Positions 5,172-64,000 of a stretch of 64,000 nt of DNA are shown here, piece after piece. The stretch is from an uncultured Lachnospiraceae bacterium. Its GTDB lineage: Bacteria; Bacillota; Clostridia; Lachnospirales; Lachnospiraceae. Position 1 is the first letter of the stretch, and each line of letters starts with the position of its first letter. The translations under genes were made by a program, and so were the position numbers. The stretch spans positions 120,588 to 184,587 of the forward strand of contig CAKRJH010000003.1 of NCBI GenBank assembly GCA_934351255.1, read 5' to 3'. Below the pieces are notes generated by a model. The model was not told the origin of the DNA and ran no database searches. It saw only the letters and a program-made list of their open reading frames with translations.

Positions 5172-8100
5172 TTACCAGGTCTGCAACAGGACCCAGCTCT
5201 TAAACCATTTCAGAAAATGTTCTGCATAACTTACGGTACAAGGTGCACCGCTGATCACCGGATAGAACATGATGAACAGCCCCACTGCCAGTGCCGTGTA
5301 AATAAACATGTATTTCTTCCACTTCGGATGCGCCTGCACCAGTCTGAACATGGTATATCCGATCATGATCGTCACAAACGGAACACTTGGGAAATAGTGA
5401 TAGATAAATACCACTCGGGTTACCAGGAACCATGGTGCGTACTGGGACAGATATCCCAGGCTCAGGAAGATCGCATTGCGGTCTCTCCTGGCAATACTCA
5501 GATACAGCATATAGGCAAACGCCGGAATGCCGGCCCACCATACCAGTGGATTACCGAACGCACTGATTCCCTCTCTCACGGTTCCGGAGATCACACGGGA
5601 GTAATACCACATTGGGCGGTACATGATTGGCCACTGCCACCAGGTCGAAGAATACGGATGTTCCGCATCGAGTTTGCTGTGGTAGTCAAACATCGTCTTC
5701 TGCGCCTGGATCACCTTCTGGATCAGCGTGCGGTCTGTTCCGTCATTGAACGGAATGTAGGACAGCACGTAGATCAGCACCGGAACTGCCACAAAGGCAA
5801 TACAGCAAAAGCCGATCGTCTTCCAGAATTTCGGAATGAAGGTATCTACCACTTCCTGATGGGAAATGCCAAGGGTCGTGCCCTTTGGATTCTTTGCCGC
5901 CTGCAGATATTCCACAAACCGGCGTCCCATCTGCACAAAGAAGATCACTGCCAGACCTGCGGATGCATAGATGCCTGTCCACTTGCTGGCCCATCCAAGT
6001 CCCATGGCCACACCGCAAAGTCCCAGCGGCACGAAGGTTTTGGACAGCTTGGTGTCGTAAAAATTCATCTGTGTATAGCAGTACATGAAATAATACGAGA
6101 TGATGATAAATGTCGTGACGAACACATCGATCGTCGCAATACGTGTCTGCGTGAAATGCATGAAGTCAAACGCAAACAATATCGTCGTGATCGCGCTGAT
6201 CCATGTCTCCTTAAACATCTTTTTGGCAAACAGATACATGAACGGAAGCATGATCACGCCAAACAGTGTTCCCATGAAACGCCATCCAAACGGACACATT
6301 CCGAAGATCATGACACCGACTGCCATCAGCTCCTTGCCCAGAGGCGGATGTGTATTTTCGTAACAGTACAGCTTGTGGATCATCTCATAGGCGGTACGTC
6401 CATGATAGATCTCGTCAAAGTAAGTACCGTTCATCTTGGTCGCTTCCCCGGTGAACAGATCCTGCTCGTCGAACAGCGTCGCATAGTCACCGGCATTGAC
6501 CGGCTCCAGCAGATTGCCTGAAGCATCGGTAAATGCCAGTTCCATCAGGCTGTCGCGGTAACCGTCTACCGCTGCTATCTGCAGATATCTGGTCTGCAGG
6601 CTGATCTGCGTATCATTCCACTTGAATACACTGCCGGAATCCCACTTGCCGTTGGTTCCATCGTACAGTGCAGTCCATCCGGCTGCGGGATCCTGTGTAT
6701 ACAGGATACTGTAACCATAGTTATTCTGGTATCCCAGATAATCCCAGATCTTGTCAATATTGACTGTCTCACCAAAGTCCAGCGTAATCGCACCCTGTTC
6801 AAAGGAAGAATACTCCGTCTGCGGCGCATCCATATCCCCCAGATTGGTAAATGCAACGACTGCATAGACCAGCGTGATGACTGCCACCATGATAAAATCC
6901 CACTTAAGCATCTTCACCGCAGGTGCGGATGGCTTGAAGTATCTGTCGGTCTGGTGTTCCTGCGCCTTCTGCTGTTCTCTTCTGGTCAGAGATCTGCTGC
7001 CGGAACGGTTTTTTTTCTGTGAACCGGCTGCCTGCACCTGATCTGTTTCCAGATTCTCTTTGGAATATCCCGAGATCGTATTCCAGATAAACCATGCCAC
7101 CATACAGACACAACACAGAGCGGTAAATTTGACCGGTCCGTTGTCGATCGTCTCCCAGGTAGCATCGTAGAAGAACAGCGCATACGCACAGTTGAAAAAT
7201 GCAACTAAAGAAACTGCCATATAGGAAATATATGTGTCTTTTCTCGGCTTGGCACAATATGCCAGAAGAAGCATGACAACCGCCGGGAAAATGTATCTCT
7301 CATGCATACGCACGGACAATGAGAATACCAGGATGTAAATAAACGCTCCGAAATAGTAGTATTTGGACTCGTCCTTTTTGCAGCGGATGCCAAAAACGAT
7401 AGATGCAACCACCGTCAGTATCAGAAATGCACTGCCCCAGATCCTTGCCTGGATTCCGAGAAGAGTCTCTGTCTGTGCATGCCAGTTCTTTCCGATCAGC
7501 GCCCAGAAATTGTAGGCATTGACCGAACAATACTCATAGGAACCGAGGGTCTCGGTATACTGTTTGAGCGCCTCCGAGAAACCAAACGGAAGCATCAGAA
7601 GGCCGATCACGCCGATGGCAGCCAGTCCAAGTCCCAGGTTGATCCCGAATTTCTTCCAGTTGAAGTCTTCCAGAAAGACCTGATCGATGATCGCCAGAAT
7701 CAGCACCGGCGCCAGCATCAGTGACTGCGGCTTGATCAGAATGGACACTGCAAATACAAAGTAAGATGGGATCAGCTTCTTCCGTGTGATCAGATAAACC
7801 ATCCATACCAGGAAGAATGTGAACACACCATCTGTCTGTCCCCAGACTGCACCGTCCAGGATCACGATCGGATTGAACAGATACAGCGCTGCGATCCAGG
7901 AGGAGGACACTCTGGTAAATCTCCGGGATGCCACCCGGTAGATCAGATAACCGGTTCCGATATCTGCCAGGATCGCCGGCAGCTTGGTGATGACATTGGT
8001 CATCGTGGATCCCCACTCACAGCCAAACAGTTTGCGCAGTGCGCCGCAGACATACAGGATATAAATATATCCCGGTGGATAATCCGCAAATCCCTGTCCG

Positions 8101-24568: not shown

Positions 24569-24826
24569 TTAAACATTGACTGCCTCCCTCATTTTCGCAA
24601 ACATCTCCTCATGGGTATAGCGTTCTGTGATCTCTTCTGCCATCCTATCCGCAACATCTAATGCATCCTCAACAGATTCCGTCAGCTTTGAGTATGCCTC
24701 AATGCTCATGACTACCATTGATCCATATCCGTTTTTCGTCAAATATACAGGTTCACCGTTTTTTACAGTGGTCTCGATTTCCGTAAACTTATTTCTCAAA
24801 TCTGAAACAGGTCTAATCTCTATCAT
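24569..24826 (-). CDS. Phd/YefM-family antitoxin-like protein (orphan; no adjacent toxin gene seen)
   Basis: MIEIRPVSDLRNKFTEIETTVKNGEPVYLTKNGYGSMVVMSIEAYSKL. ATG 24826 has SD AAGGAGGAG 5 nt upstream. Confidence 0.55.
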   Translation of the reverse strand: MIEIRPVSDLRNKFTEIETTVKNGEPVYLTKNGYGSMVVMSIEAYSKLTESVEDALDVADRMAEEITERYTHEEMFAKMREAVNV

Positions 24827-25100
24827 AAGCTCCTCCTTATCATAATTTTGATAAAATTGTGCCATCCTTATTATATACAACTTATCGAAAATTAGCAACC
24901 GATGTTCAGGACAATCTCATAAAGAATCAACACTGTCAAAAAACGTCCCTCGACTTTAAGAAGAAAAAGACAGACCATATTTGCTATTTCTCAGTGTGAG
25001 CATTTCCTGTTCTGTAAACTTTCTGTTTGCCATAATTTCCTCCAATTCATTTTTATTGTAATATCAATCTGAATCGGAGTCAAAAAAGCGATTTTGTCCA

Positions 25101-25316: not shown

Positions 25317-25323
25317 TATCGAA

Positions 25324-25396
25324 GCTGAAAAAGGGACTTGAACCCTCGACCCCTTCATTACGAGTGAAGTGCTCTACCAACTGAGCTATTTCAGCA
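25324..25396 (-). tRNA. tRNA-Thr (anticodon CGT)
   Basis: The reverse complement folds as a cloverleaf: GCTGAAA-TA-GCTC-AGTTGGTA-GAGC-A-CTTCA-CTCGTAA-TGAAG-GGGTC-GAGGG-TTCAAGT-CCCTT-TTTCAGC-T. The anticodon loop has CGT. Confidence 0.85.
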
Positions 25397-25542: not shown

Positions 25543-25992
25543 TTAACATTTATCAAATGCTTCTTGAAAAATAACATTTAAAGCATCATAAAATGCATGC
25601 TCTTCTTTTTGATTTTTAGGTCCCAAAAGAGCTTTTCCAAGAACACCCATCTGCCGAGTTGATACTTCTCTTCTCCAGTTTTTGCTGTCTCCGATCATAT
25701 ATTGTGTCAAATAACAACCATTTTCATTATTGTCTAATGCAAACGCATATCCATAATAATCGTTCATATGCATCGTATTATATATTGTAATACATGGATA
25801 CACTCTTCCAAAAAGTCCTTTTTTCTTACATTCATCTTTGGTAATCGTTAAATTAATTCCATTCAGCTCTGCCAAGTCCGATATAATCTGTGCAAACAAA
25901 TCTAATGAAAAATCACCTCGACAAAATAATGGATTACCACAAATTCTTTCATCTAATACTTTAATCATTTTTTCTTTCGATGTATAAAACAT
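25543..25992 (-). CDS. hypothetical small protein, candidate immunity protein for the upstream nuclease
   Basis: 149-aa ORF directly downstream of the nuclease-like gene (toxin then immunity order). No family recognised. Confidence 0.4.
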   Translation of the reverse strand: MFYTSKEKMIKVLDERICGNPLFCRGDFSLDLFAQIISDLAELNGINLTITKDECKKKGLFGRVYPCITIYNTMHMNDYYGYAFALDNNENGCYLTQYMIGDSKNWRREVSTRQMGVLGKALLGPKNQKEEHAFYDALNVIFQEAFDKC

Positions 25993-26198
25993 CTGCTCCT
26001 TTCTACATAATATACAAGTTCAGGTTAGATAACGTATTTCCTCCTTTCTGTAGCTTTGTTAAATTTATCGTCTGTTCAAACGATATTTATCCTCATAAAA
26101 TGCCATTCCTATTTGGGCACTCTTACAAGCATCTGAATCTCAATATTCCGGATTTCCGTAAAGTAAATCCAATTCTGGTGAACAAACATCGCAATAAT

Positions 26199-26651
26199 TT
26201 ATATATCGTCTGCTTCTTCCGAAAGTTCAAACTCTTCTTCATTTAGATTTTCATTTGTTAAAGAAAAAACTTCTTCTTGTTTTTGACCTCTTTGATCTGT
26301 AATCGTATAGCGTCCCATTATTGCATGTGGACGCTTCGTATTATCCTGATAATACGGTTCAATTTCGACATGTACTTCATTACCGCGCTCTAATTCATCA
26401 GCCCAGGTGTTTTCAAATGTTTTATATGCACTCCGGTTTATAAAACGATTCTGTGCAATCAAATTATTTAATTCACCACTTCCACCAAAGCGGCTGCCGA
26501 TCAAATGTCCTCCATCGTCTGTATCACGCCGAAATTCACCTCCTGCTTTTAATTGAGCAGAAGTATCTCTTACCCCCTGTTCCAAGCGCAAATCTCCCTC
26601 CGCCAAAATAATTCTTCCCTCATCATCTTTTTCATATGAATATCCATTCAT
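26199..26651 (-). CDS. small HNH/EndoVII-superfamily (GH-E-like) nuclease toxin-domain protein. It may be the C-terminal part of a frameshift fusion with the upstream acidic ORF.
   Basis: ...DDGGHLIGSRFGGSGELNNLIAQNRFINRSAYKTFENTWADELE... resembles polymorphic-toxin nuclease domains. There is no SD before its ATG. The ORF continues in frame upstream for 12 codons, up to the in-frame stop at 26688-26690; that stretch includes the A-run. Confidence 0.5.
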   Translation of the reverse strand: MNGYSYEKDDEGRIILAEGDLRLEQGVRDTSAQLKAGGEFRRDTDDGGHLIGSRFGGSGELNNLIAQNRFINRSAYKTFENTWADELERGNEVHVEIEPYYQDNTKRPHAIMGRYTITDQRGQKQEEVFSLTNENLNEEEFELSEEADDI

Positions 26652-26662
26652 TTCATATGAAT

Positions 26663-26992
26663 TTATCTCGTCTTTTTTTTTACATACTCATAAACCTCTG
26701 GATCTTCATCTTCCCCCATCTCCTCCCACTCATCAAGCATTTGATTTAATTCATCAGAAATATCTTGTTCTTCATAATCTTCTCTGACATCGGGTTCCAT
26801 ATCTCCTACATCTTCATAGTCCTCTGAAATGTCGACTTCATCAGGGTAATATTCTGCAACTTCATCATAGTCAATATCACTTGCATCATACTCCACATCT
26901 TTAACACCAAGCATATCATCCAACACAGGGGTATCTGCAATATCACTACCGATATCATCAACATATTCCATATCACAACTCATATCATCCAT
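26663..26992 (-). CDS. highly acidic (about 45% D/E) small protein; its 3' end contains a dnaX-type -1 frameshift heptamer
   Basis: MDDMSCDMEYVDDIGSDIADTPVLDD...EDPEVYEYVKKKTR. ATG 26992 overlaps the ATPase stop by 8 nt. It ends with GTA AAA AAA AAG ACG AGA TAA. Confidence 0.5.
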   Translation of the reverse strand: MDDMSCDMEYVDDIGSDIADTPVLDDMLGVKDVEYDASDIDYDEVAEYYPDEVDISEDYEDVGDMEPDVREDYEEQDISDELNQMLDEWEEMGEDEDPEVYEYVKKKTR

Positions 26993-29648
26993 TTTTCTCA
27001 CCGCCTTTTACAAACAGAGTAATCAGTTTAATTTTTTCCTTATCATCCATTTTATATAATTTGTCATTCAACTGAAGTTTTCGAAACAATTTAATCCTTA
27101 CACAAATAATAAATTCCCGATCATTCCTATACCCCATCGCTGCTATTTTTTTTGCAAAAAGTGATGGAATACTTAAAAACACACCTCGAATTGTTCTTTT
27201 TTTATCTGCATTCTTATATAACGCATCAGCACAAACTGCATAGGCCTCGCTAGAAATATATTCTGCATCTGCCTTGATTCTAAAATTACAACCATCACCA
27301 TATAATCCACACAGATAACACTCTTTATATGGACATAACAATTTTTGCTTATTATCCCAGTAATGCATCAATTTTCTAATCAAATCATTGTCTATGCTTA
27401 ATTTAATTTGTTTCTTTTCTCTTATATCCTCCGTCATCACAAGCTGCGGTTTATTAAATGCTGTAGAATAAACATACGCTTCACCAACTTGCAAACCGGA
27501 GAGAGTTTCTTCCATTTCTGCATCCATATTGGTACTGTTAGCAATCAGTCTTCGTTCTGATGCCTCCACAAGCCGAAACATAATTTTTGTATCTGTGGCA
27601 GCAATGATATCATGAGTCACTTTTGACGGTGATTGATCCGCAATAATAACCCCCGTTCCATACGCCCTGATTTCTTTAAGCATCCTCTGTAATGAACTCA
27701 CTGTTGATGATCCTGCAGAAATATCCGAATTATCCCCTCTTCCTTCCGGAGATAACAGAACATGTGCCTCATCAATCATCAAAACATTTTTGAGTCTGGT
27801 TCCTATACTTGAACTATTTATCTTGGTATATGCGCAAACATCAACCAACAATAACGCCATTATTAATGCTTTTTGCTCCATGTTTTCTATGGAATTCAGT
27901 TCTATAATGGTCGGTCTTGAAATTAAATCTTCAATAGGTATGGTATTGATTGAATCATAAATATTGCTATTCATATCAATTAAATTCATCAATCGCATAA
28001 CACCTGCTGTTTCCAAATTTGATTTTACATCCTTGCTATAATTTGATGTTTGAAGCAATTTCTTAAACACTAAAATAAATTCGTGTAAACCAAATATAGT
28101 AACATCCTTGTCATCAGATGTACTATAATCCTTCCACCCGTATTTCGTATAGCATCGTTGAATGGCGTTTTGGAATAATAAATCTAATGGTGATGGCATA
28201 GAAAAAGCAGCCATAAATGCACTTACCAAAACAGGTTTATATTGCTCCACCGTAATTCCTTTCAATGGAATAAACGGATTAATAATAAATGGAGAAACAC
28301 TAACATTTCCCGGTGTAAAAATTTGTATATCCGGTAGTTGTTCTATTAATGCTCTATACTCTGTCTTAGTCGGTTCGACAATCAAAAACGGAATATTTCT
28401 TTCAGCAAATTGCAACATCAAATTAATAGAAAAGGTTGTTTTACCAGTTCCTGGCATGCCAACAATCAATACATGCTTTGACAGTATTCTTTCGTTACAA
28501 CCAATAGTAATCTTTTTCAGATCTGATGATATTAATTGTCCAAACTTTATATTAGAATCACTAATAATCTCTTCTTTTAACTGTTCTCTTTGCTTTTTAT
28601 ATCTGGTTTCCTCAATACCTGACATATTTCCATCGTAAACCGGCAAACGAAAAAAAGAAATCAATTCTTCGATCGTCATCATCAGCGGAAGTCGATACAA
28701 ATAATTGGAGAGTGGAATGTATTTACGAATTTTCATATTTCTATATTTGTACATTAATAAGGCACTTACGTTCCATATATAATTCGGAAATTCATTGATT
28801 ATGCTGCCAATACTTTTTGATATATCAATACAACTCGCTTCAAAACTACCGATATTACTGTCTCCACCTTTTAAAAGGCTGATAATTTTGGCAGATAAAA
28901 CAGTACAATCTTCTTTGGTTCCAAAAACCAATAAATTGGATAAAAACATAGGTGCATCCCGATTATCTTTATAATAAGATAATACTTCAAACGGTTCCTG
29001 AGCACATGAATCCTTTAAAAGTTGTCCATTAACAGATATTCCTTTTGATAATCCCTCCAGTTCAGAACAATGTTGTACTAATATTGCGATTTCATTCTCA
29101 TACAATTTTGTTGGTAGTATACTAAACGAAACACCGCAATTCTCCATCTGACTCAAAGTATTGATCAGAGATGCCAACCCCTCAGTATTATTTGATGGAA
29201 TAATCTCAGTATAATAAAATGGACAGACACTGGATGGATTAATAACCACCTTTTCCTTTTTTTCTACAGCATATACCAAACTTTTAACATCCTGTCTCCA
29301 AAGATCATCGAACGTTTGACGGCAATGTTCTGAATCTTGACAAAAATATCCAAAATCCGATACTACATTTTGAATGTTATTTATAAGCATTTTTACACGC
29401 GATACTGCTTCTGCGCTTACGTTGTCTATCTTTCGTACAACAATATAAATATGGATTTTCGAGGCATATGATTGATTATCAACTTTCTCGGTCAACCAAA
29501 TGATTTCATAAGCAACATTCTGATTATCAAGTCTATACAACTCTCCTAAAACACTATCAAAATCTGAAATTGTGTCTGAGAAAGTAACAATTTCCAGCAT
29601 ATCAACTGCCAAGAAACGATTGTCTGCTAATTCATACACCTGTACCAT
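26985..29648 (-). CDS. FtsK/HerA/VirB4-type P-loop ATPase (DUF87-like), 887 aa, with a Cys-rich C-terminus
   Basis: Walker A VGMPGTGKTT followed by FLIVEPTKTEY (HerA-like DP.GEY). Walker B VLMIDEAHVLL. IIADQSPSKV matches the TQRP-like motif. The C-terminus carries CPYKECYLCGLYGDGCNF. Confidence 0.7.
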   Translation of the reverse strand: MVQVYELADNRFLAVDMLEIVTFSDTISDFDSVLGELYRLDNQNVAYEIIWLTEKVDNQSYASKIHIYIVVRKIDNVSAEAVSRVKMLINNIQNVVSDFGYFCQDSEHCRQTFDDLWRQDVKSLVYAVEKKEKVVINPSSVCPFYYTEIIPSNNTEGLASLINTLSQMENCGVSFSILPTKLYENEIAILVQHCSELEGLSKGISVNGQLLKDSCAQEPFEVLSYYKDNRDAPMFLSNLLVFGTKEDCTVLSAKIISLLKGGDSNIGSFEASCIDISKSIGSIINEFPNYIWNVSALLMYKYRNMKIRKYIPLSNYLYRLPLMMTIEELISFFRLPVYDGNMSGIEETRYKKQREQLKEEIISDSNIKFGQLISSDLKKITIGCNERILSKHVLIVGMPGTGKTTFSINLMLQFAERNIPFLIVEPTKTEYRALIEQLPDIQIFTPGNVSVSPFIINPFIPLKGITVEQYKPVLVSAFMAAFSMPSPLDLLFQNAIQRCYTKYGWKDYSTSDDKDVTIFGLHEFILVFKKLLQTSNYSKDVKSNLETAGVMRLMNLIDMNSNIYDSINTIPIEDLISRPTIIELNSIENMEQKALIMALLLVDVCAYTKINSSSIGTRLKNVLMIDEAHVLLSPEGRGDNSDISAGSSTVSSLQRMLKEIRAYGTGVIIADQSPSKVTHDIIAATDTKIMFRLVEASERRLIANSTNMDAEMEETLSGLQVGEAYVYSTAFNKPQLVMTEDIREKKQIKLSIDNDLIRKLMHYWDNKQKLLCPYKECYLCGLYGDGCNFRIKADAEYISSEAYAVCADALYKNADKKRTIRGVFLSIPSLFAKKIAAMGYRNDREFIICVRIKLFRKLQLNDKLYKMDDKEKIKLITLFVKGGEKNG

Positions 29649-29654
29649 ACTTTA

Positions 29655-31358
29655 TTAACCTCTCAATCCCTGTATATAATCATCTAATTCGCTTATTTTA
29701 TTTACGCATGTTTCATACGTTTCTTTTTGTTTTTCCAAATCAGCAATAAAAGACTCAAGCACCTGCTTTTTTAAGGCAATAGCATCATAATTTTTTTGTT
29801 CTTTCTGCAACGCTGTCTTTTTTGTGAGCGCTTCAATATGCCAAACAACACCACGATAAAAAATTCCCCATAGAATAAAGATTACTACACCTGTGAACAC
29901 ACCATCCATTATGCTTTCTGTAACGCAGATATACAACACCCAAACTATACATGCTATAAATGACAATCTGAAATCATGAGGTTTCGATAATTTCTTTATT
30001 TTAGGTTTCAGTTCGTTCAGTTGCAACTGCAACATTTTAGTTTCTTCCCTTTTCTGGCTAATCTCCGGCGATACATCACTATATCCTGCAATCTGATCTT
30101 GATAATACTTTTTCTCCTCTTCTGCTTCACCTATTTTCAGTCGCTTATTCTGCTCCTGCAGTCTTCTTATATAGTCTTTCCACTCCTCCTGTATCATTTT
30201 CGCCTTATCTGGATTTGCAACAGTGATTGCATGTTGTACCATATTTTGCATCTCAGAAGCCAACTCATTGTCCAAATGGGTTAAACACTCACTTTGTACA
30301 TAGGGTACTCCCCACCATCCACGATAATCTTCCGGATACCTATTTTGCATTTCAACATATAATTCATATGCTTTTTGCGTTTCATTCAGTTTCATAAAAG
30401 TTTCCGCATTGGCTGCTAAACGGTTCACCTCAGATGTTTCTTCATTTGAGAGAATCCCGGTCTTTCTTTTGTTGTTTTGTATGACGTTGTTAACACCCTC
30501 TACCAGATATTCCACATAGCCTATTTTGTTCAGATCAAAAGATTGAAATGCCGAAAATTCCATTGGCATTTCATACGGAGACATATTTTTAAAGCAAGCA
30601 ATCAGTGTTTTGTCTTTATTTTCTTTCTTTAGTTCCAAAAAACGAGACCATTCATTCTTTACCCAGGTAGAATTATAATATTCCGTTTTAGTTCCCAGAA
30701 CAATCATTACCGTTGCACTCATCAATGCAGCATATATGTACGGTTCATACTCTTGTCCAAGCTTACTTTCCAATGATTTTTTTGCAAAAAATGTACGGTA
30801 TCCCGCCTGCTCTAACGAATTATAAATATTATATGCTATCATGCTGTCTTCTGTTGGCTCTCCATTTTCCATCTTATCTTTGTAACAGATAAAGACATCA
30901 TATGGCTTCTCTTCTTTTACAATTTTAATATACTTATTATAAATCTCGTCAATTTTGGTCGCTTCTTCTTGAAAAACATAAGATTCGTATATATCTGCAT
31001 TTTGCAACGCTGCTTTATAATCCGGATCATCAAAAATAGAATGATCCTGTATTCTATGACATGTCGGTTTCCTTTCTCCCCCAATATCATTTACATACTC
31101 AATACCATATCGGCTTAAAACCATTCCCCAATGAGCCGCTGAATCTTTATGATCTTCTCGAAGTAAATCATCAAAAACAGATATTGCACCATCAAAATCC
31201 AGATTTTGTCTTAAAAACGTAGCACGATTAAATAAATTTTCTATTTTGTCCTTATTTTGGGATACAATCATTTTTGAATCACAATACTTGCATGTTGCTA
31301 TTGAAGTACTTTCATCAAAATCGATATTCGCTCCACACACTTCACACTTTAATATCAT
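29655..31358 (-). CDS. zinc-ribbon TIR-domain protein with a coiled-coil region and two C-terminal TM helices
   Basis: N-terminal CEVCGAN...CKYCDS zinc ribbon. TIR core YDVFICYKD ... ALMSATVMIVLGTKTEYYNSTWVKNEWSRFLEL, in which WVKNE corresponds to the catalytic WxxxE. Two TM helices (LSFIACIVWVLYICV, GVVIFILWGIFY) lie near the C-terminus. SD GGGAGGT. Confidence 0.7.
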   Translation of the reverse strand: MILKCEVCGANIDFDESTSIATCKYCDSKMIVSQNKDKIENLFNRATFLRQNLDFDGAISVFDDLLREDHKDSAAHWGMVLSRYGIEYVNDIGGERKPTCHRIQDHSIFDDPDYKAALQNADIYESYVFQEEATKIDEIYNKYIKIVKEEKPYDVFICYKDKMENGEPTEDSMIAYNIYNSLEQAGYRTFFAKKSLESKLGQEYEPYIYAALMSATVMIVLGTKTEYYNSTWVKNEWSRFLELKKENKDKTLIACFKNMSPYEMPMEFSAFQSFDLNKIGYVEYLVEGVNNVIQNNKRKTGILSNEETSEVNRLAANAETFMKLNETQKAYELYVEMQNRYPEDYRGWWGVPYVQSECLTHLDNELASEMQNMVQHAITVANPDKAKMIQEEWKDYIRRLQEQNKRLKIGEAEEEKKYYQDQIAGYSDVSPEISQKREETKMLQLQLNELKPKIKKLSKPHDFRLSFIACIVWVLYICVTESIMDGVFTGVVIFILWGIFYRGVVWHIEALTKKTALQKEQKNYDAIALKKQVLESFIADLEKQKETYETCVNKISELDDYIQGLRG

Positions 31359-31373
31359 CAGTACCTCCCATTA

Positions 31374-32627
31374 TTATAAATCCTTTAATTTTTCTCGTTC
31401 AATTTTGAACTCCTCGTCAGTGTATAACCCTTCCTGCCAAGCCATTTTCAAACGTTTTAACCGTTTCATATACTCTTCATCATCAATATGATGCTTTTCA
31501 TTGCATGTATTTTCTACTGATGTTTTCAAATGAACCATTCCCGGTATATCATCACCATCCTCGTTGCCATCGCTAGGGGTTACATTTATATTTGCACTAT
31601 CCTTCTCTGTAATCGGTGTCATTAGACTACTTCCTTGAATTTCATTTCCAAAACTACTCATTGTCTGGCTAATAAACGGTGCCATCCCCATTCCCATTCC
31701 AACTCCCATCATGGGTGCACTACTTCTTCCAATGCCTTCATTAGCTGCCGCAATATCCATCACCCCAAATCCTCTTCGCTGATGTTCCGTCATATTAAGA
31801 GTTTTATTAGCAATACTTTGAGCGATTGCATCGCGTTTTTTTATTTCCTCATCTGCTATATGCTCCGTAATTCTGACATTTGCATTGATTGCAGCTTCTT
31901 TTATCCGATTTTTTTCTTCCATATTCAAGAAAGTATTTTGGGACCATAAATGTTTATACATTTGATAATTAGGATCAGCATCAGATGCATTGATATTATT
32001 CACGTATAGATCCACCAACGCTATTCCGTATTCAAACATATAACTGGAAATTGCCTTTTTAAGCTGTTCTGCAATTCCCATTGGATTACTCTCAAGATTA
32101 AAAATCGACGTATTTTCTTCTCTTAAAATTGCGGGAAGCCATTGTTTGATGCATGAAATGATGATTCCTTTAAAATATCTCATCATATGTTCCTGATCGA
32201 ATTGTGTTTCCGTCCCAACCAACTTCAATAATATTTTTTTTGAATCCACTACTTTGATACTCATTTCACCGGACGTGCTAATAGAAAATGGCGGCAAATT
32301 CATGCTTGGATCACTATATTTTATATCTCCAACACCCCAATTAATTGCCATTTGCTCCGTCTTGTTTACAAAATATACTTCACAATGAAATGGTGATATT
32401 CCATCACTCGGCAAATTGATCAGTTTGTTTAAAATAGGTATATTTTTAGTCTGTAACTTATATGATCCTGGTTGAAAGATATCTGTCAACTGACCATCTT
32501 TAAAAAAAGCTGCCTCTTGTGTTTCATGTACAATTAAGGTTGAATGAGTATTAAAATCTTCTCCTGGAAACTTCCATACAAATGTTCTATTATTTATTTC
32601 ACCCTTTATTATGTCAAATATTTGCAT
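31374..32627 (-). CDS. SPFH/band-7 domain protein (YdjI-like) with a C-terminal SHOCT-like domain
   Basis: MQIFDIIKGEINNRTFVWKFPGEDFNTHSTLIVHETQEAAFFKDGQLTDIFQPGSYKLQTKNIPILNKL is the YdjI-type SPFH N-terminus. The C-terminal EEYMKRLKRLKMAWQEGLYTDEEFKIEREKL is SHOCT-like. ATG 32627 has SD GGGAGGG. Confidence 0.7.
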   Translation of the reverse strand: MQIFDIIKGEINNRTFVWKFPGEDFNTHSTLIVHETQEAAFFKDGQLTDIFQPGSYKLQTKNIPILNKLINLPSDGISPFHCEVYFVNKTEQMAINWGVGDIKYSDPSMNLPPFSISTSGEMSIKVVDSKKILLKLVGTETQFDQEHMMRYFKGIIISCIKQWLPAILREENTSIFNLESNPMGIAEQLKKAISSYMFEYGIALVDLYVNNINASDADPNYQMYKHLWSQNTFLNMEEKNRIKEAAINANVRITEHIADEEIKKRDAIAQSIANKTLNMTEHQRRGFGVMDIAAANEGIGRSSAPMMGVGMGMGMAPFISQTMSSFGNEIQGSSLMTPITEKDSANINVTPSDGNEDGDDIPGMVHLKTSVENTCNEKHHIDDEEYMKRLKRLKMAWQEGLYTDEEFKIEREKLKDL

Positions 32628-32637
32628 ATGTCCCTCC

Positions 32638-33228
32638 CTAATAGTTTTCACTATCAACAGTTAATTTTTCAATTCTTGATCCATTGATATCATGATTCTC
32701 TGTCATAAATATTGTAATCATCTCAGAATCTGCTTTCGACTCAATAAAGACTTTCCCATCCGCTCCATTCGGATCATTAGCCGTTTCCGATTTAAAACTT
32801 AATGATGCAATAAAATCATCCATTGATGTATACCCATTAAGTTGTAAAAAAAGTTCAATTACCTCTCCTGAATAATCAGAATCTACGATATCCCCAAAAT
32901 TGGATAACTCTACGGTTGTGCTTTTCATTGCTCCTCCACTTCTTTGAGCCAGACAAGAAACAATGTCTGTTGTTATGCTACTTAATATCTCTCTATCCAT
33001 ATACATATTATTCAATTCATCATACTCTTCATTGTCACCATAAATGTCATTATAAAGATTACTATTTATTTGTTGGTTTGCAATGTTTTGTCCTGAATCA
33101 TTGGTTTGAGTAGATCTACGAGATATAATGATTCCTGTTATTACAATTGCAGTGCACAATAAAATTGCTGCTCCTAAAATAGCAAGTACAATAATTTTAA
33201 TATTATTTTTCTCTTTCATTTTTTCCAT
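32638..33228 (-). CDS. membrane-anchored hypothetical protein (N-terminal TM then hydrophilic domain), first gene of the island operon
   Basis: MEKMKEKNNIKIIVLAILGAAILLCTAIVITGIIIS, then an Asn/Asp-rich soluble region. Confidence 0.45.
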   Translation of the reverse strand: MEKMKEKNNIKIIVLAILGAAILLCTAIVITGIIISRRSTQTNDSGQNIANQQINSNLYNDIYGDNEEYDELNNMYMDREILSSITTDIVSCLAQRSGGAMKSTTVELSNFGDIVDSDYSGEVIELFLQLNGYTSMDDFIASLSFKSETANDPNGADGKVFIESKADSEMITIFMTENHDINGSRIEKLTVDSENY

Positions 33229-33343
33229 TTCCTTTCTATTCTTTGTATCTTTATATTTAAAACCACATAATGATTATTATGGTTTTAGAAACAAAAAAAC
33301 TCCCCATAAAAACAATAGGAAGAAAATGAAAAAGCCAAATTAG

Positions 33344-33571: not shown

Positions 33572-34471
33572 TCAGCAAAAACACTGCGTTCTATCCATAT
33601 AATAATCATTATGTAGATTTCCATCATCCACAAGCAAATTCATGTTCTCAAGTTGTTTTCGATGTTCATTATAGGATTCTTTAAGATAAATTCTTGTTGT
33701 CTCTATACTACTATGTCCCAAAATATCCGCAAGTTTAGCAATGTCCCTATATAAGGAATAAAATGTTCTTGCAAACAAATGACGCAGATTATGTGGGAAT
33801 ACCTTATCCTGGTCTATTCCGGCATCACTACAAAGCTTTTTCATTTCACGCCATATCCATGTGCGGTCAACTGCATTTCCTCTTGATGTTTGAAACACCA
33901 TGCCTTTCTTTATACTCTGTACTCGAATATAGCACAGCAAACGAACCTGTAAATCTCTGGGAATTAGTACCTGCCGCTCTTTTCCCTTATTATATATAGT
34001 GACCATCCCCTTTTTTACAGACGTAATCGTAATTGCAGATAACTCACTCACTCGAATCCCTGTTGCACATATTGTTTGTATAATCATACCCAGTCGAACT
34101 TTTCCGCTATCCATAGCTGTTTTCACTAACTTCATATATTCCTTCTTTGATAATTCTCTGTTTTCCGGCACAAACACTTCTTTTTGCAATTTAAATGTTT
34201 TGACTCTAAGTTCATACCATCCTAAAAACTCGAAAAAACGATTTGCTGCAACCAAAAAAGAATTAATACTGCTTGTTTTATAATCTGCATTCATACGCAA
34301 ATGTTCTTTATACTGAATCACGAGCATTTTATCCAATTCTCTATTATCCGCAAATTCCACTAACTTTTTTATATCACACATATATTTTTGTATAGTAGCC
34401 TTACTTTTTTCTTGTTCATACAAATATATTTTATAATCTTCTAACATTTTCTCTGTAATAATCTTTTTCAT
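33572..34471 (-). CDS. tyrosine site-specific recombinase/integrase (XerC/XerD-like)
   Basis: Catalytic-motif candidates ATGIRVSEL (R), HNLRH (H-x-x-R) and HSSIETTRIYL (H...Y). ATG 34471 has SD GGAGGT 8 nt upstream. AT-rich like the rest of the island. Confidence 0.8.
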   Translation of the reverse strand: MKKIITEKMLEDYKIYLYEQEKSKATIQKYMCDIKKLVEFADNRELDKMLVIQYKEHLRMNADYKTSSINSFLVAANRFFEFLGWYELRVKTFKLQKEVFVPENRELSKKEYMKLVKTAMDSGKVRLGMIIQTICATGIRVSELSAITITSVKKGMVTIYNKGKERQVLIPRDLQVRLLCYIRVQSIKKGMVFQTSRGNAVDRTWIWREMKKLCSDAGIDQDKVFPHNLRHLFARTFYSLYRDIAKLADILGHSSIETTRIYLKESYNEHRKQLENMNLLVDDGNLHNDYYMDRTQCFC

Positions 34472-34701
34472 AATGTAGTACCTCCAGTCCCCTAAAAATG
34501 GGAAAAAAATAACCATTTGAAACTTAATCCAAATGGCTTATGTAAATTTACTAATATTTTATTAAAAGCAGATAGATATGCAAGTCCATTTTATGAATAA
34601 TAAATACGAAGGAACACTAGCAAGCCTTTAACGTTGTTACTCATCATTTACACCTTCTATACGATAAGAAATCTTTCCACCAATAAGGCCAGACACATTT
34701 C

Positions 34702-59884: not shown

Positions 59885-60796
59885 TTATTTCAGGCTCCAG
59901 TCTGTCAGGTCGCCCACATAGATCTGCTTGATCTGATCCAGACTCAGGTCAGAGATGTCATTTTTGTTGTTTACAATGATCGCGATACCATCCAGAGCAA
60001 TGGCGGTGGCAGTAAGCTTAGATGCCTCATCATCTGACAGTTCACGGGATGCCATGCCAATGTCACAGGTTCCCTCGATGGCAGATGTCATACCGATGGT
60101 AGAATCACTCTGCTGTACCTCGACGGTTACCCCTCCGTTGACTTTCTGATATTCCTCTGCCAGCTTCTCCATAACCGGAGTCACTGAGGAAGATCCGGCT
60201 ACCACCACCTTACCGGAGGCTTTGCTGCTCTCGAAATCTTTTGCGGAATCGTCAATCTTGATGTACTTGTTATCCTCTACAATCGTCTGTCCCTGTGCAC
60301 TCAGGATGAAATTGTAGAAATCCTGAGCGGCGTCAGACATTTTCTTGTCCTTGGAAACTGCTACGTTAAATGGTCTGGATACCTTGTAGGTACCTGCCTT
60401 TACATTGTCTGTGGTCGGCTCTACGCCCTCCACATTGACCGCCTTTACCGTGTCATTTAATGCTCCCATGGAAACATAGCCGATCGCGTTGCTGTCGCTT
60501 GCCACATTGTTCAAAACGACATCGGTGCTGTTCGCGATGATCGCGCTTGTCGTGGTGTGATCGACCTTATTTCCGTCAGCATCCTTTTCCTCGACACCGG
60601 TCAGTTCCACGAATGCCCCGCGGGTTCCGGATCCGTCCTCACGGCTGACCACGGAAATGGTTCCGCTCACGCCGCCCTTGTCTGCGCTTCCGGAAGAAGA
60701 CGCATCCTTATTTCCACAGCCTGTCATCAATGTGATTGCCATCAGTCCGGCCATAGCAACACAACTTGTTTTCTTGAATAATTTTCTCATTCTCAT
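59885..60796 (-). CDS. pstS: phosphate-binding lipoprotein
   Basis: Lipobox LMTGCGNK. PstS-like PBP sequence. Confidence 0.85.
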   Translation of the reverse strand: MRMRKLFKKTSCVAMAGLMAITLMTGCGNKDASSSGSADKGGVSGTISVVSREDGSGTRGAFVELTGVEEKDADGNKVDHTTTSAIIANSTDVVLNNVASDSNAIGYVSMGALNDTVKAVNVEGVEPTTDNVKAGTYKVSRPFNVAVSKDKKMSDAAQDFYNFILSAQGQTIVEDNKYIKIDDSAKDFESSKASGKVVVAGSSSVTPVMEKLAEEYQKVNGGVTVEVQQSDSTIGMTSAIEGTCDIGMASRELSDDEASKLTATAIALDGIAIIVNNKNDISDLSLDQIKQIYVGDLTDWSLK

Positions 60797-60844: not shown

Positions 60845-60878
60845 ACGAACGTAAAATCTACTATCATCCGAACGTAAA
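60845..60878 (-). promoter_or_regulatory. direct repeat TTTTACGTTCG x2 (about 23-bp periodicity) upstream of pstS; candidate Pho-box
   Basis: cgaacgtaaaa occurs twice on the + strand, at 60845-60855 and 60868-60878, in the pstS promoter region. Confidence 0.3.
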
Positions 60879-60896
60879 AAAAAAGTAAAAATAAAG

Positions 60897-60946: not shown

Positions 60947-63900
60947 TTAGAAATTTGTGAGAACCCGGGCAAGGGTGTAGGTCACATAATCCGATAATGA
61001 TGTCGTGGAAGGATTGTCCTTATCCTGCACAGAGATGGCGTTTCCCTCTTTATCCAGCAGGGTCACCTCTGCCACCAGACGATAGTTCGCATACATAAAA
61101 TCCGTCTGTTTCGTGGACACATCCACGGCATATTCTACCGGAAGACGATAGACACCATCTTCCAGATTGGCAAAACTTCCGTCTGCTTTTGTCTGGGTAA
61201 ACGTCCACGTATGATCCTTCTGGCTTAATCCCTGACTCTGATACCCGGATGCCTTCCTGACACCGGCCTTTACATAGTCAAGATAACGATCTGTTGTGAT
61301 CTTCTTATAACTCCTGCTGTTCTCTTTCTGTTCCAGATGGAACGTAAACTTCATCATTTGTACCTTTTCCAGTACACTCTTCCAGCCTGTCCAGTTATTA
61401 AAATCGATGACGGCCGTAGCGTTGATCACCTGGGAGCGGTTCTCCGGAAGATCATTCAGGTTGATTCCAAGCTGATCAACATTATCCCCGTTAAACGTCA
61501 GTTCCAGATATCCGGTTTCGTCTTTATAGTAAAAACTCTTAGGCTCCGCGCTGGCTCTCCATGTACTCTCTGTCAATTTGTCGGTCGAGCTTGCGAGTCT
61601 GGCATTGTACTGAAAATGCAGCGACTGTTCCGGTTTTCCATCGGAAACAATAGATGCAGGAACCAATTCCCGGATCGATTCTTTCGACATGGTAAGTGTC
61701 ATCTGCGCCTCCACACAGATATCTCCCGTCTTGTCTGCCGATTTCAGGATATCCGTCCGGACCGGAGACAGATCGATCGCAGCACTCTCTGAATTTACCG
61801 CGCCCAGCACAAGCTTCATTTTTCCTTCTTCCGAAGTCCATGGATAAGAAGCACAGTACACTTTCGTATCAGATCTGACCAACTTGCCGTTCTGATAGTT
61901 ATAATACTGTTTTGTGTCTCCCTTCTGGGAATACACCATAAATGATACCGTTCCGGACGTCCCGGAATCCGTCAGGAAGGAAAGCTCCTCTTTATTATTG
62001 TAAGGAGTGGCAATAAATTCCTGATAGAGTTTATCGGTATTCGCATCATAGCTCTGGCTGCTGTTGAAGGAGATGGTATTTTTCAGATGAATGTCAATAT
62101 TGGCTGTATCCGTATTGATCTTGTGATTCCCATCGTTACTCTGATCCTCCAGTTTCTGTGTGTAACTTGCCAGAATACTATATGTACTCTCCGTATTACT
62201 CCTGTCATCCAGAGATGTTTTGTCATACCGGTGAACCTGGGTAATGTTGCAAGGCGAACTGGTGTCCACCTTCGCTGCCAACGCACCGTTGATGCTGGTC
62301 AGACCGGCAGGCTTGGCACACTTCTCAGGGACATTGACCACCACATAGTAGTTTTCAGACACCTTTTGAGCATTGTCCAAAGTAATGGAATACGCTGTTT
62401 TCCCCTGATCAGCCTCGTTCGATGCATTCTTCAGACGGTAGTATCTGCCGTCCGTCGTCACAACCGTTGCATCCGCTGCATTCTCAGCCTCTATAAACCG
62501 CCCTGCGTTATCCACGGTGGCGGTCGCATGATACAGCCTGCTGACTGCGGTTTCCTGATAGTTCTTCCCTTCCCGGTCAACAAAAGCAGACAGAGGAACC
62601 GTTACTTCATGATGGTTAATGTCAGAAGACTGTACCTTATACGTATAATAGGTATCCTGATCCTGGGTATCCACCAGTGTGATCCTGGAACCGGCAGGGA
62701 GATATCCCTCGGAACAGTCAAAGATCAATTTCTTGTCAAACCCTCTGGTGAGATCTGCTCCGGACTCCATAAAACTCTGCCAGTCAAACTCTGCCGCCTG
62801 ATTCTGGCTGGAATTATAAATCCAGGAAAGATAGCCCGTCATGTCAGCGTCATACTCTACCAGAACGTGTTTCTTCAGTACGTCATATGGCTCAGACGTA
62901 AAGATGCTCTCATCGTTTAAGGTAGCGCAGAAGTCAATCTCCACAATACGGCGGACTACGATAGGAACATAGACCGTCTGCGTATGTTCTCCCGCCGTAA
63001 AGGTTACGGTAAGAAGGGTAAACTGCTTCCTGTCATTGTCGTAATCCTTGCCCATGGAATAGGTAATACCGCCGGCTGAATTCTTTACTATCAGGGAACT
63101 GCCCCCGGTATTCTCAAATTCACTACCATTCCATCGGTATGTTTCACTTTTCGCATCCACAAGTTTCTTTCCCTGCTGCAATGCAAGGGAATATCCACCA
63201 TTGGTCAACAGATCCAGGTATTTGCGGATGTCTGTTCCAATGCTGTTGCCCGCCGCGAGAAGAACCCGGAAATCACTTCCCAAAACGTCTCCCTCGGCTT
63301 CGTTTTGTGTATGGAAGGTCGAAACCTTGTTCGACACATCAAACCCGTTCGTCCCCGTCAGACCGACTCCTGTCGTGGTATATTTCACTCGTCCGCTGTC
63401 CTGCGCCACTCCATTCTTCATCTCCTGATAGATCAGGTCGACATTGTTGTTCACACTGCCTGAATCCATGGCGTTGTAGACAGCGTCACCAAATAAGGTG
63501 CCAAATGCTCCGGAAAAGACGGTTCCGTCTGTGAACCGGCCCTTCGGGCTGGTGATGACGTTTACCTTAGAACCAATTTCCTTATCAATAACGGTGATTG
63601 GAACACTACATGTTTTCCCCTCATACGATGCCGTCAAATTGCTTTCGCCAGCCATGACATTACTGATCGAATTCTTGGACAACTGAACCTTAGTAACATC
63701 GACAGGCATCATGACACCCCTGTTTTCATCATACAGGGCAAACTCAAGTCCCATAGCCGTTTTTAAGTCAGAAACCTGTTCCTCTGTGTTGAAAGAACTC
63801 TTTGTACAGGCGGTGAGAATAAGCTTTGTATAGTTGGCCTGGCTGACAGGTGTTTTTTCGATTTTGATGGTTTTAAACACATCAGCACTATTCTCAAGGG

Positions 63901-64000
63901 TGTATGATTTATAGGCCTGCGTTTCTTTACCAAATAACTCTTGAGCCAAAGAGTTATTCATGGCAGTGGATTTACTTTCTCCCTCAAAGGTATAGGATCT
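60947..64000 (-). CDS. very large hypothetical protein (more than 1017 aa). The N-terminus lies beyond the window edge.
   Basis: The open frame continues without a stop from 63961 to the end of the window. No repeats or known domains were recognised. Confidence 0.55.
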   Translation of the reverse strand, partial: RSYTFEGESKSTAMNNSLAQELFGKETQAYKSYTLENSADVFKTIKIEKTPVSQANYTKLILTACTKSSFNTEEQVSDLKTAMGLEFALYDENRGVMMPVDVTKVQLSKNSISNVMAGESNLTASYEGKTCSVPITVIDKEIGSKVNVITSPKGRFTDGTVFSGAFGTLFGDAVYNAMDSGSVNNNVDLIYQEMKNGVAQDSGRVKYTTTGVGLTGTNGFDVSNKVSTFHTQNEAEGDVLGSDFRVLLAAGNSIGTDIRKYLDLLTNGGYSLALQQGKKLVDAKSETYRWNGSEFENTGGSSLIVKNSAGGITYSMGKDYDNDRKQFTLLTVTFTAGEHTQTVYVPIVVRRIVEIDFCATLNDESIFTSEPYDVLKKHVLVEYDADMTGYLSWIYNSSQNQAAEFDWQSFMESGADLTRGFDKKLIFDCSEGYLPAGSRITLVDTQDQDTYYTYKVQSSDINHHEVTVPLSAFVDREGKNYQETAVSRLYHATATVDNAGRFIEAENAADATVVTTDGRYYRLKNASNEADQGKTAYSITLDNAQKVSENYYVVVNVPEKCAKPAGLTSINGALAAKVDTSSPCNITQVHRYDKTSLDDRSNTESTYSILASYTQKLEDQSNDGNHKINTDTANIDIHLKNTISFNSSQSYDANTDKLYQEFIATPYNNKEELSFLTDSGTSGTVSFMVYSQKGDTKQYYNYQNGKLVRSDTKVYCASYPWTSEEGKMKLVLGAVNSESAAIDLSPVRTDILKSADKTGDICVEAQMTLTMSKESIRELVPASIVSDGKPEQSLHFQYNARLASSTDKLTESTWRASAEPKSFYYKDETGYLELTFNGDNVDQLGINLNDLPENRSQVINATAVIDFNNWTGWKSVLEKVQMMKFTFHLEQKENSRSYKKITTDRYLDYVKAGVRKASGYQSQGLSQKDHTWTFTQTKADGSFANLEDGVYRLPVEYAVDVSTKQTDFMYANYRLVAEVTLLDKEGNAISVQDKDNPSTTSLSDYVTYTLARVLTNF

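Follow-up and report, generated by a model that had tools for sequence, protein, structure and literature searches.

An acidic-protein gene and a nuclease gene, which close a defence-like cassette of five genes (SPFH, TIR, HerA-like ATPase, acidic protein, EsaD-like nuclease), may be joined by a recoding site. The cassette lies in a 64,000-nucleotide (nt) stretch of DNA from an uncultured Lachnospiraceae bacterium (contig CAKRJH010000003.1), the whole of which we call the window. We put at about even the chance that recoding at an A9G run links the two genes and gives a major acidic product and a minor acidic-nuclease fusion. In our model, standard decoding would produce the complete 109-aa acidic protein, with a stop at the normal C terminus of its family, and slippage at A9G on a minority of transcripts or ribosomes would produce a fusion of ~264 aa (~30 kDa). 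The slip itself would be either the addition of one A by RNA polymerase (A10) or a -1 slip of tRNA-Lys on A_AAA_AAG. It would be the main route, or one route, to a nuclease open reading frame (ORF) that has no Shine-Dalgarno (SD) sequence, and it would keep the level of a toxic effector low and in constant proportion to the acidic protein. Slippage at a useful level, the choice of mechanism, and the ratio-setting role are what we infer; the junction itself is a good, still unproven candidate for a kind of recoding that is already known.

The acidic ORF ends, in its 0 frame, with GAG TAT GTA AAA AAA AAG ACG AGA TAA, the run finishing three codons before the end (coordinates are collected in Table 1). 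In the -1 frame, the same stretch reads TGA (26690-26688) GTA TGT AAA AAA AAA GAC GAG ATA AAT TCA TAT GAA ATG, or a stop followed by VCKKKDEINSYEM-NGYSYEK, and is open from 26687 through the A-run into the nuclease. An earlier note on this DNA had placed the heptamer in the 0 frame and the nuclease ORF in a -1 frame open across the run, and had observed that both frames encode KKK there and that a -1 slip leads into the nuclease; coordinates and sequence bear out each of these points. The product of such a slip would read ...YVKKK-DEINSYEMNGYSYE... at the junction. An A10 version would encode VKKKDEINSYEMNGY..., a perfect in-frame acidic-nuclease fusion, and the tryptic peptide DEINSYEMNGYSYEK is encoded solely by the shifted product. 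The junction has the layout of a -1 slippery site, with an X_XXY_YYZ heptamer in the 0 frame and the -1 frame holding the target ORF. It also has the features of a transcriptional slippage site: an uninterrupted tract of at least nine A or T within coding sequence, conserved in length, at which a one-base insertion gives a longer product homologous to single-ORF relatives (P0005-15 and L003; proteins carry P numbers, and contigs or loci carry L numbers).

A run of nine A residues is unremarkable alone, as the window holds two against an expected 0.9 +/- 1.45. The junction run is the one in coding sequence; the other, at 60876-60884 on the plus strand, lies between long ORFs at 59885-60796 and 60947-63961 and appears intergenic. 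Chance does not account, however, for the recurrence of the identical A9G junction in 24 contigs of other assemblies. A genome scan with the ATPase returned the isolate Clostridium sp. AM49-4BH (L001; NZ_QUFB01) and a Lachnospiraceae metagenome-assembled genome (L002), both with the junction identical, and contigs encoding the closest nuclease proteins added four more junctions. A metagenome scan in which the run length was left free (6-14 nt) added 18 related human-gut contigs. Exactly A9G was found in the window and all 24 related contigs (25/25), which fall into four junction haplotypes, and the 0-frame TAA is retained in all four. The heptamer is thus present in 25/25 close relatives, a shallow clade, and is absent from distant split orthologues and from fused ones. 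Two further pattern matches without an A-run (L025 and L041) were set aside as chance hits. In the nuclease-less contigs L034 and L035, the run is A8. These two (L034, 590-660; L035, 620-690) and L036 carry an orphan acidic gene, 68% identical to that of the window, with its own SD and no ATPase upstream; the A8 run (VKKR-stop) is followed by a 39-nt remnant of the nuclease start (..SYDANGYSY) and then by unrelated sequence.

We then considered the seven -1-frame codons between the run and the nuclease ATG, whose translation requires a -1 shift or an A10 mRNA; no in-frame start codon is present upstream of the nuclease ATG in its frame. Across the four haplotypes, the -1 frame reads DEINS, DDLNS, DDLNS, and DEVNS, and the 0 frame reads TR-stop, TI-stop, MI-stop, and MR-stop. 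The four variable sites between the run and the ATG give a synonymous D/D, E/D, I/L/V, and a synonymous S/S in the -1 frame, whereas in the 0 frame the same sites give the radical changes T/M and R/I. Of the nine nucleotide changes relative to nuclease-less L034, six are at third codon positions in the nuclease frame (P=0.04), and the 12 nt preceding the ATG show 1 change against 4-7 expected neutrally. The L034-36 remnant reads DNIKSYDANGYSY in the nuclease frame, with GCG at the ATG position and the flanking residues retained. At the protein level, the -1 peptide ..INSYEM-NGY fits the Y-E-x-NGY motif of fused homologues such as P0007 (DDTIQYEMNGYQYEK; TIQYEMNGY), and including the -1 codons lengthened the PF13930 alignment by three residues (102.3 versus 100.6 bits). 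In an AlphaFold model of the fusion, built on a 29-sequence alignment, the nuclease part has a predicted local distance difference test (pLDDT) score of ~90, and the -1 segment forms a beta-strand (111-115) paired with 118-122, also at pLDDT ~90. The acidic part is mostly disordered. On modest statistics, these comparisons favour the view that the segment upstream of the nuclease ATG behaves as coding sequence that is read. Low variability at the junction was also considered as a signature of recoding (4 variable sites from -20 to +62, with ~13 expected) and was dropped because other stretches of both ORFs are equally invariant.

The nuclease ORF matches PF13930 with E=1e-28 and 100.6 bits against a gathering cut-off of 27, and it encodes an EsaD/EssD-like beta-beta-alpha-Me non-specific endonuclease (8GUO match, E=3.5e-19). 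By Foldseek, its model superimposes on 8GUN with a template modelling (TM) score of 0.72, a root mean square deviation of 1.6 A, and 33% identity. The DGGH catalytic motif is present, H163 and its neighbours are invariant, and all invariant catalytic residues are retained; the hidden Markov model score, the DGGH histidine, and the EsaD fold together place the protein in the PF13930/EsaD-like family. As the earlier note had remarked, its ATG lacks an SD: no SD-like match lies within 20 nt, while a match of 4 nt or more precedes 35/40 large ORFs of the window. Across the junction haplotypes, all in the split state, the ratio of nonsynonymous to synonymous substitution rates (dN/dS) is 0.16-0.20 for the nuclease ORF, with dS up to 0.51, and ~0.3 for the acidic ORF. 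Since the nuclease ORF is under purifying selection in the split state, it is presumably expressed, and judged by these substitution patterns both ORFs are expressed, selected genes. A related protein, P0002 (248 aa), has a nuclease 93% identical to that of the window joined exactly at NGYSYEK to an unrelated hydrophobic N terminus (MIKLIKNELIKIFKRKTIYFLL...); it is either a cassette-swap chimera or a misassembly.

Fusion of the two modules is common elsewhere. Single ORFs of 229-400 aa with an acidic N terminus and the nuclease were found in P0005-7, P0009-15, P0021/22, and L003, and in L003 and L037 the fused proteins directly follow the same HerA-like ATPase. Because they sit in this shared context, we regard the fusion as a functional architecture. 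At 6651-7774, L039 encodes both a stand-alone acidic protein (117 aa, ...DAKVLRMG-stop) and an acidic-nuclease fusion (257 aa) that overlap by 4 nt, so the acidic module is duplicated there. In P0025 and P0028, a long acidic, serine-rich low-complexity region stands after the nuclease domain, not before it. A seeming second frameshifted junction (P0019/P0023 look split) was rejected as an artefact, since L040 is full of homopolymer indels in a P0009-type fused gene.

Several observations weigh against recoding. The acidic ORF aligns end-to-end with stand-alone acidic proteins (L004, L028, L031-33, and P0057), and all of these stop within 0-4 residues of the 0-frame stop of the window. They have a tail of an aromatic residue, any residue, K or Y, and V, and end 0-4 residues past it (KVLKL-stop in L028, KVR-stop in L031, KVLVKTR-stop in L004, and also KVLTK-stop). 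The window protein, ...PEVYEYVKKKTR-stop, ends likewise in YEYVKKKTR-stop. As the acidic ORF ends at the natural C terminus of the family, it appears from the alignments to be a complete product and a member of the stand-alone acidic protein family. Four loci (L028, L031, L032, and L033) have a stand-alone acidic gene (83-120 aa) followed by a nuclease gene with a strong SD (AGGAG, AAGGGAG, or AGAGGGGG) and no slippery site, so fusion is not required for function; in L004, the acidic gene is followed by a terminator and no nuclease. The SD-driven nuclease of L033 (P0027) starts MKYEF and is as short as the product from the ATG of the window, and the upstream strand therefore looks dispensable, as this nuclease naturally lacks it. 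The frame-specific substitution tests are marginal (P 0.04-0.2). Conservation of A9G is not significant alone, with P ~0.3-0.5 if only synonymous sites are free to change.

The downstream hairpin also counts against the ribosomal form of the slip. Its 11-nt loop holds the nuclease AUG, and its stem begins 10 nt past the heptamer, with a minimum free energy (MFE) of -8.9 kcal/mol (z=-3.2) for a 60-nt piece and -11.9 kcal/mol (z=-2.7) for 91 nt. The earlier note was right that two TTCATATGAA copies can form a 10-bp stem-loop at this distance. However, the structure is weak and AU-rich, and in the L002-type haplotype (TTCTTATGAA) it is destroyed by an uncompensated A-to-U change, which leaves a different fold with an MFE of -5.8 kcal/mol. 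This change is synonymous in the -1 frame, and the L002-type lineage keeps A9G and an intact, constrained nuclease. A stimulatory structure at a dnaX-type site is stable, lies ~5-9 nt past the heptamer, and is conserved among orthologues; ours lies 10 nt off and the L002-type haplotype lacks it, on which grounds we rejected it as the conserved stimulator that the earlier note thought plausible. No Rfam family matches the junction hairpin. The TTCATATGAA repeat probably reflects the SYE...YSYE codons together with the palindromic CATATG. A second candidate stimulator, the internal SD-like GAGGT upstream of the heptamer, is invariant and lies within a 31-nt invariant stretch (-20 to +11 around the A-run). 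For dnaX-type sites, the optimum spacing of the upstream SD is 10-14 nt, and GAGGT falls outside it.

A dnaX-type site goes with a single tRNA-Lys (UUU) that reads AAG weakly. Clostridia probably do not share the sole tRNA-Lys of E. coli, and the host probably has a second one, which also speaks against ribosomal slippage; no tRNA-Lys gene was found in the window or in the 19 loci examined. In E. coli, the high efficiency of A_AAA_AAG depends on that sole tRNA (PMC5009743), and without stimulators the heptamer gives ~0.3% frameshifting (PMC4066793). In contrast, A9 is the length at which RNA-polymerase slippage becomes evident in many bacteria and is exploited for expression, as A-run slippage is by insertion sequence (IS) elements, mxiE, and others (PMC1088944). 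Thermus has two lysine tRNAs and relies on slippage of RNA polymerase at A9 (PMC5009743). Two products arise by slippage from T. thermophilus dnaX (A9), mxiE, and tssM1 (A11) (PMC1088944, PMC5009743, PMC4256274), and for tssM1 both the short and the long form are needed (PMC4256274). Because A9 is a classical RNA-polymerase slippage tract, dnaX-type frameshifting is not the sole recoding option here and is probably not the best. Transcriptional slippage from A9 to A10 is the likelier of the two, given that the hairpin is weak and not conserved, that in E. coli the heptamer alone gives ~0.3% and owes its efficiency to a sole tRNA-Lys, and that A9 slippage has precedents. Of the "dnaX-type" frameshift in the earlier note, then, the slippery heptamer in the 0 frame stands and a conserved stimulatory structure does not.

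The junction has in common with E. coli dnaX the identical 0-frame heptamer, with a 0-frame stop close by, a stem-loop on its downstream side, and an SD-like element on its upstream side; one mRNA would likewise yield two products. Unlike in dnaX, the shift would give the longer of the two. The stem is AU-rich (~-9 kcal/mol), begins 10 nt off, and is not conserved, and the SD-like GAGGT is 15-16 nt upstream. With T. thermophilus dnaX, Shigella mxiE, C. rodentium tssM1, and IS elements, it shares an uninterrupted A-run just before a stop, at which one added A brings back a longer protein like that of the homologues; the short and the long form could plausibly both be functional, as for tssM1 (PMC4256274). 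Unlike in those genes, the short product here is a conserved stand-alone protein and not a truncated form, and the downstream ORF has its own AUG.

The strongest competitor of recoding is ordinary translational coupling, in which ribosomes stopping at the acidic TAA would start again at the SD-less AUG, which lies 11 nt further on and is exposed in the hairpin loop, and make a 150-aa nuclease free of the acidic protein. The A9G run would then merely encode a basic KKK tail, and any slippage would be incidental noise. An 11-nt distance from stop to start is compatible with reinitiation, the acidic protein ends with a valine-plus-basic tail as in L004, L031, and L028, and separate acidic and nuclease genes exist in L028, L031, L032, and L033. 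P0027 indicates that a nuclease with this start position is viable; in so shallow a clade, the statistics for A9G conservation are not compelling, and the hairpin is not conserved. Nevertheless, the nuclease would have to do without an SD in a genome of the Firmicute type, in which an SD precedes almost every gene, and the other split loci have one too. The 21 nt before the ATG behave as -1-frame coding sequence and encode a conserved structured strand, and the L034 remnant has GCG at the ATG position with flanking residues retained. We consider coupling quite possible, if on balance doubtful. The claim of the earlier note that the two ORFs are probably one gene is too strong: many single-ORF fused homologues agree with it, but a complete stand-alone acidic family and four two-gene loci do not. 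Among orthologues, fused ORFs exist and every close relative that keeps the nuclease has the A-run, but conservation does not extend to the hairpin. Orthologues with two genes, each under its own SD, and no heptamer, which the earlier note would have counted against a frameshift, occur among distant orthologues only.

The remaining explanations concern the run length itself. Homopolymers are error-prone on some platforms, and the unrelated contig L040 shows such an artefact; yet the same length in 25 independent assemblies, including an isolate genome, and in four diverged haplotypes leaves next to no chance that A9 is a sequencing or assembly error, an alternative raised by the earlier note that we rejected on the 25/25 count. 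The same note allowed for phase variation. At a phase-variable contingency locus, replication slippage would toggle between A9, with the ORFs split and little or no nuclease, and A10, with the ORFs fused and the nuclease on. Homopolymer tracts of about this length are mutable, A10 would fuse the ORFs perfectly in frame, and a related lineage does have A8. However, all 24 related contigs have A9 although the scan admitted 6-14 nt, so that neither an A8 nor an A10 allele appeared among them, and the A8 lineage has lost the nuclease and is therefore not a switch state. We think such a switch very unlikely. Just as improbable is decay, in which a fused gene was broken by a 1-nt deletion (A10 to A9) and the nuclease is a silent remnant. 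The break would lie within a homopolymer, where frameshift mutations classically arise; a further +1 insertion is present in three contigs, and the L034-36 lineage lost the nuclease. Against this, the ORF keeps its full 453 nt in the window and 21/24 related contigs (7/9 nuclease haplotypes), every invariant catalytic residue is retained, and we rejected a pseudogene on the nuclease dN/dS. The three contigs (L018, L022, and L026) have one added A at the catalytic His codon (GGACAT to GGACAAT, at ~26505 of the window), which truncates the nuclease; L026, with a coverage of 1.7, also has a 2-nt deletion upstream. These insertions suggest recurrent or inherited loss of a costly toxin, or low-coverage error, and amount to occasional loss, not general decay.

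If slippage at A9G is used, the junction would be a case of chromosomal recoding in gut Clostridia, where few are documented, and a means of holding a toxic nuclease in constant low proportion to its acidic partner, a logic shown for tssM1 and dnaX. It would also matter for annotation. Hundreds of metagenomic gene calls are the 150-aa SD-less nuclease (cluster P0001 has 261 member sequences), where the true product may be the 264-aa fusion. If the slip is not used, the genes form an ordinary coupled pair with an incidental lysine run. A broader proposal, which we regard as unlikely, is that the A9G run sets stoichiometry within a HerA-type defence cassette not described before, with the acidic module serving as the handle of the ATPase or as a DNA-mimicking inhibitor that controls the effectors. 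A small fixed fraction of the acidic module would then carry the EsaD-like nuclease, and the toxin would never exceed its acidic partner; elsewhere in the family, the linkage would be solved by gene fusion, by separate SD-driven genes, or by both.

Table 1. Features at and upstream of the acidic-nuclease junction (positions in the window)
Feature	Position	Strand	Description
Nuclease ORF	26199-26651	minus	150 aa from ATG; -1 frame relative to acidic ORF; PF13930
AU-rich hairpin	26631-26661	minus	two palindromic TTCATATGAA copies (26631-26640, 26652-26661); 10-bp stem
-1-frame codons	26652-26672	minus	GAC GAG ATA AAT TCA TAT GAA (DEINSYE); seven codons from slip site to nuclease ATG
0-frame TAA stop of acidic ORF	26663-26665	minus	two codons past heptamer, 11 nt before nuclease ATG
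Acidic-protein ORF	26663-26992	minus	109 aa from ATG 26992; 41% D+E
A9G slippery run	26672-26681	minus	A9 = 26681-26673, G = 26672
Heptamer A_AAA_AAG	26678-26672	minus	0 frame of acidic ORF (GTA AAA AAA AAG)
SD-like GAGGT	26694-26698	minus	internal; 15-16 nt upstream of heptamer; candidate stimulator
HerA/FtsK-like P-loop ATPase	26985-29648	minus	887 aa; directly upstream of and translationally coupled to acidic ORF
TIR-domain protein	29655-31358	minus	upstream gene of the same tightly packed cassette
SPFH/Band-7 protein	31374-32657	minus	upstream gene of the same tightly packed cassette

Whatever the fate of the slip, the modular SPFH/TIR/HerA/acidic-protein/nuclease cassette lies outside current defence-system models. 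The ATG of the acidic ORF overlaps the stop of the HerA-like ATPase (ATGGATGA); we set its start on the SD GGTGA and on homologues that begin MDDM. The ATPase matches DUF87, PADLOC mad8/HerA, and the CedD/HerA NCBIfam model, all below cut-off, and it always precedes acidic or nuclease genes in L003, L004, L028, L031, L033, L037, and L039. From SPFH to nuclease (26192-32635), the cassette is 92-94% identical in L001, L002, L014, and L016, and identity ends 7 nt past the nuclease stop. More widely (window 26192-33255; L003, L004, L028, L029, L031, L033, L037, and L039), SPFH/Band-7 and a HerA-like ATPase (887-905 aa) recur in a cassette together with a small acidic protein; its TIR and PF13930 nuclease effectors vary, and it often encodes a ~229-aa protein as well. 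PADLOC gave the generic HerA/mad8 for the ATPase only, with no model matching the cassette partners, and a literature search found no paper describing the SPFH+HerA+TIR combination. The cassette looks like an undescribed defence-type system. Like the Sir2-HerA and HerA-DUF4297 anti-phage systems, it sets a HerA/FtsK-type ATPase beside toxic effectors (an NADase-type TIR and a nuclease) on what looks like a mobile island. It does not belong to either, as the HerA_antiphage score of its ATPase is 54 bits against a cut-off of 800, and its partners are SPFH, TIR, the acidic protein, and the PF13930 nuclease instead of Sir2 or DUF4297.

The S. aureus EsaD/EssD type VII secretion system (T7SS) toxin (8GUN/8GUO) shares the homologous nuclease domain and its DGGH motif. 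The window nuclease differs in that it has no LXG/T7SS delivery domain and no EsaG/DUF600 immunity gene, lies in an intracellular HerA/TIR/SPFH cassette, and has a disordered acidic protein as partner. With no delivery domain and with downstream genes that vary between relatives, it does not fit an EsaD-EsaG toxin-immunity pair or a polymorphic toxin. Downstream of the nuclease stand a 149-aa ORF (25543-25992) in the window, RnfC in L001, and PqqD/radical SAM genes in L002 and L007. In the latter two (L002, 13465-15093; L007, 1121-2524), the PqqD and radical-SAM pair is inserted between the nuclease and a homologue of the 149-aa ORF. The 149-aa ORF was rejected as an immunity gene, as it is not conserved beside the nuclease in L001. 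Because no conserved immunity gene follows the nuclease among the relatives compared, the acidic module may be its regulator, which is inference only.

The cassette is flanked by a tyrosine recombinase (XerC/integrase-like) gene (33572-34516, minus strand) and a tRNA-Thr(CGU) gene (25323-25395, minus strand), and its flanks differ in L001 (RnfC downstream), which suggests an integrative island. A plasmid search with the cassette returned nothing relevant, and scans of viral contigs returned only distant PF13930 toxins. Ahead of its orphan acidic gene, L035 has a ~230-bp insertion (60-300) that is absent from L034. Near-repeats of CGCAAACGCCTAT(A)TTTGCGAAAA(A)TAGG border this insertion, perhaps a small mobile element. 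Past the tRNA-Thr gene, and close to it, the window encodes a Phd/YefM-type antitoxin ORF (24569-24898, minus strand; PF02604, E=2e-11).

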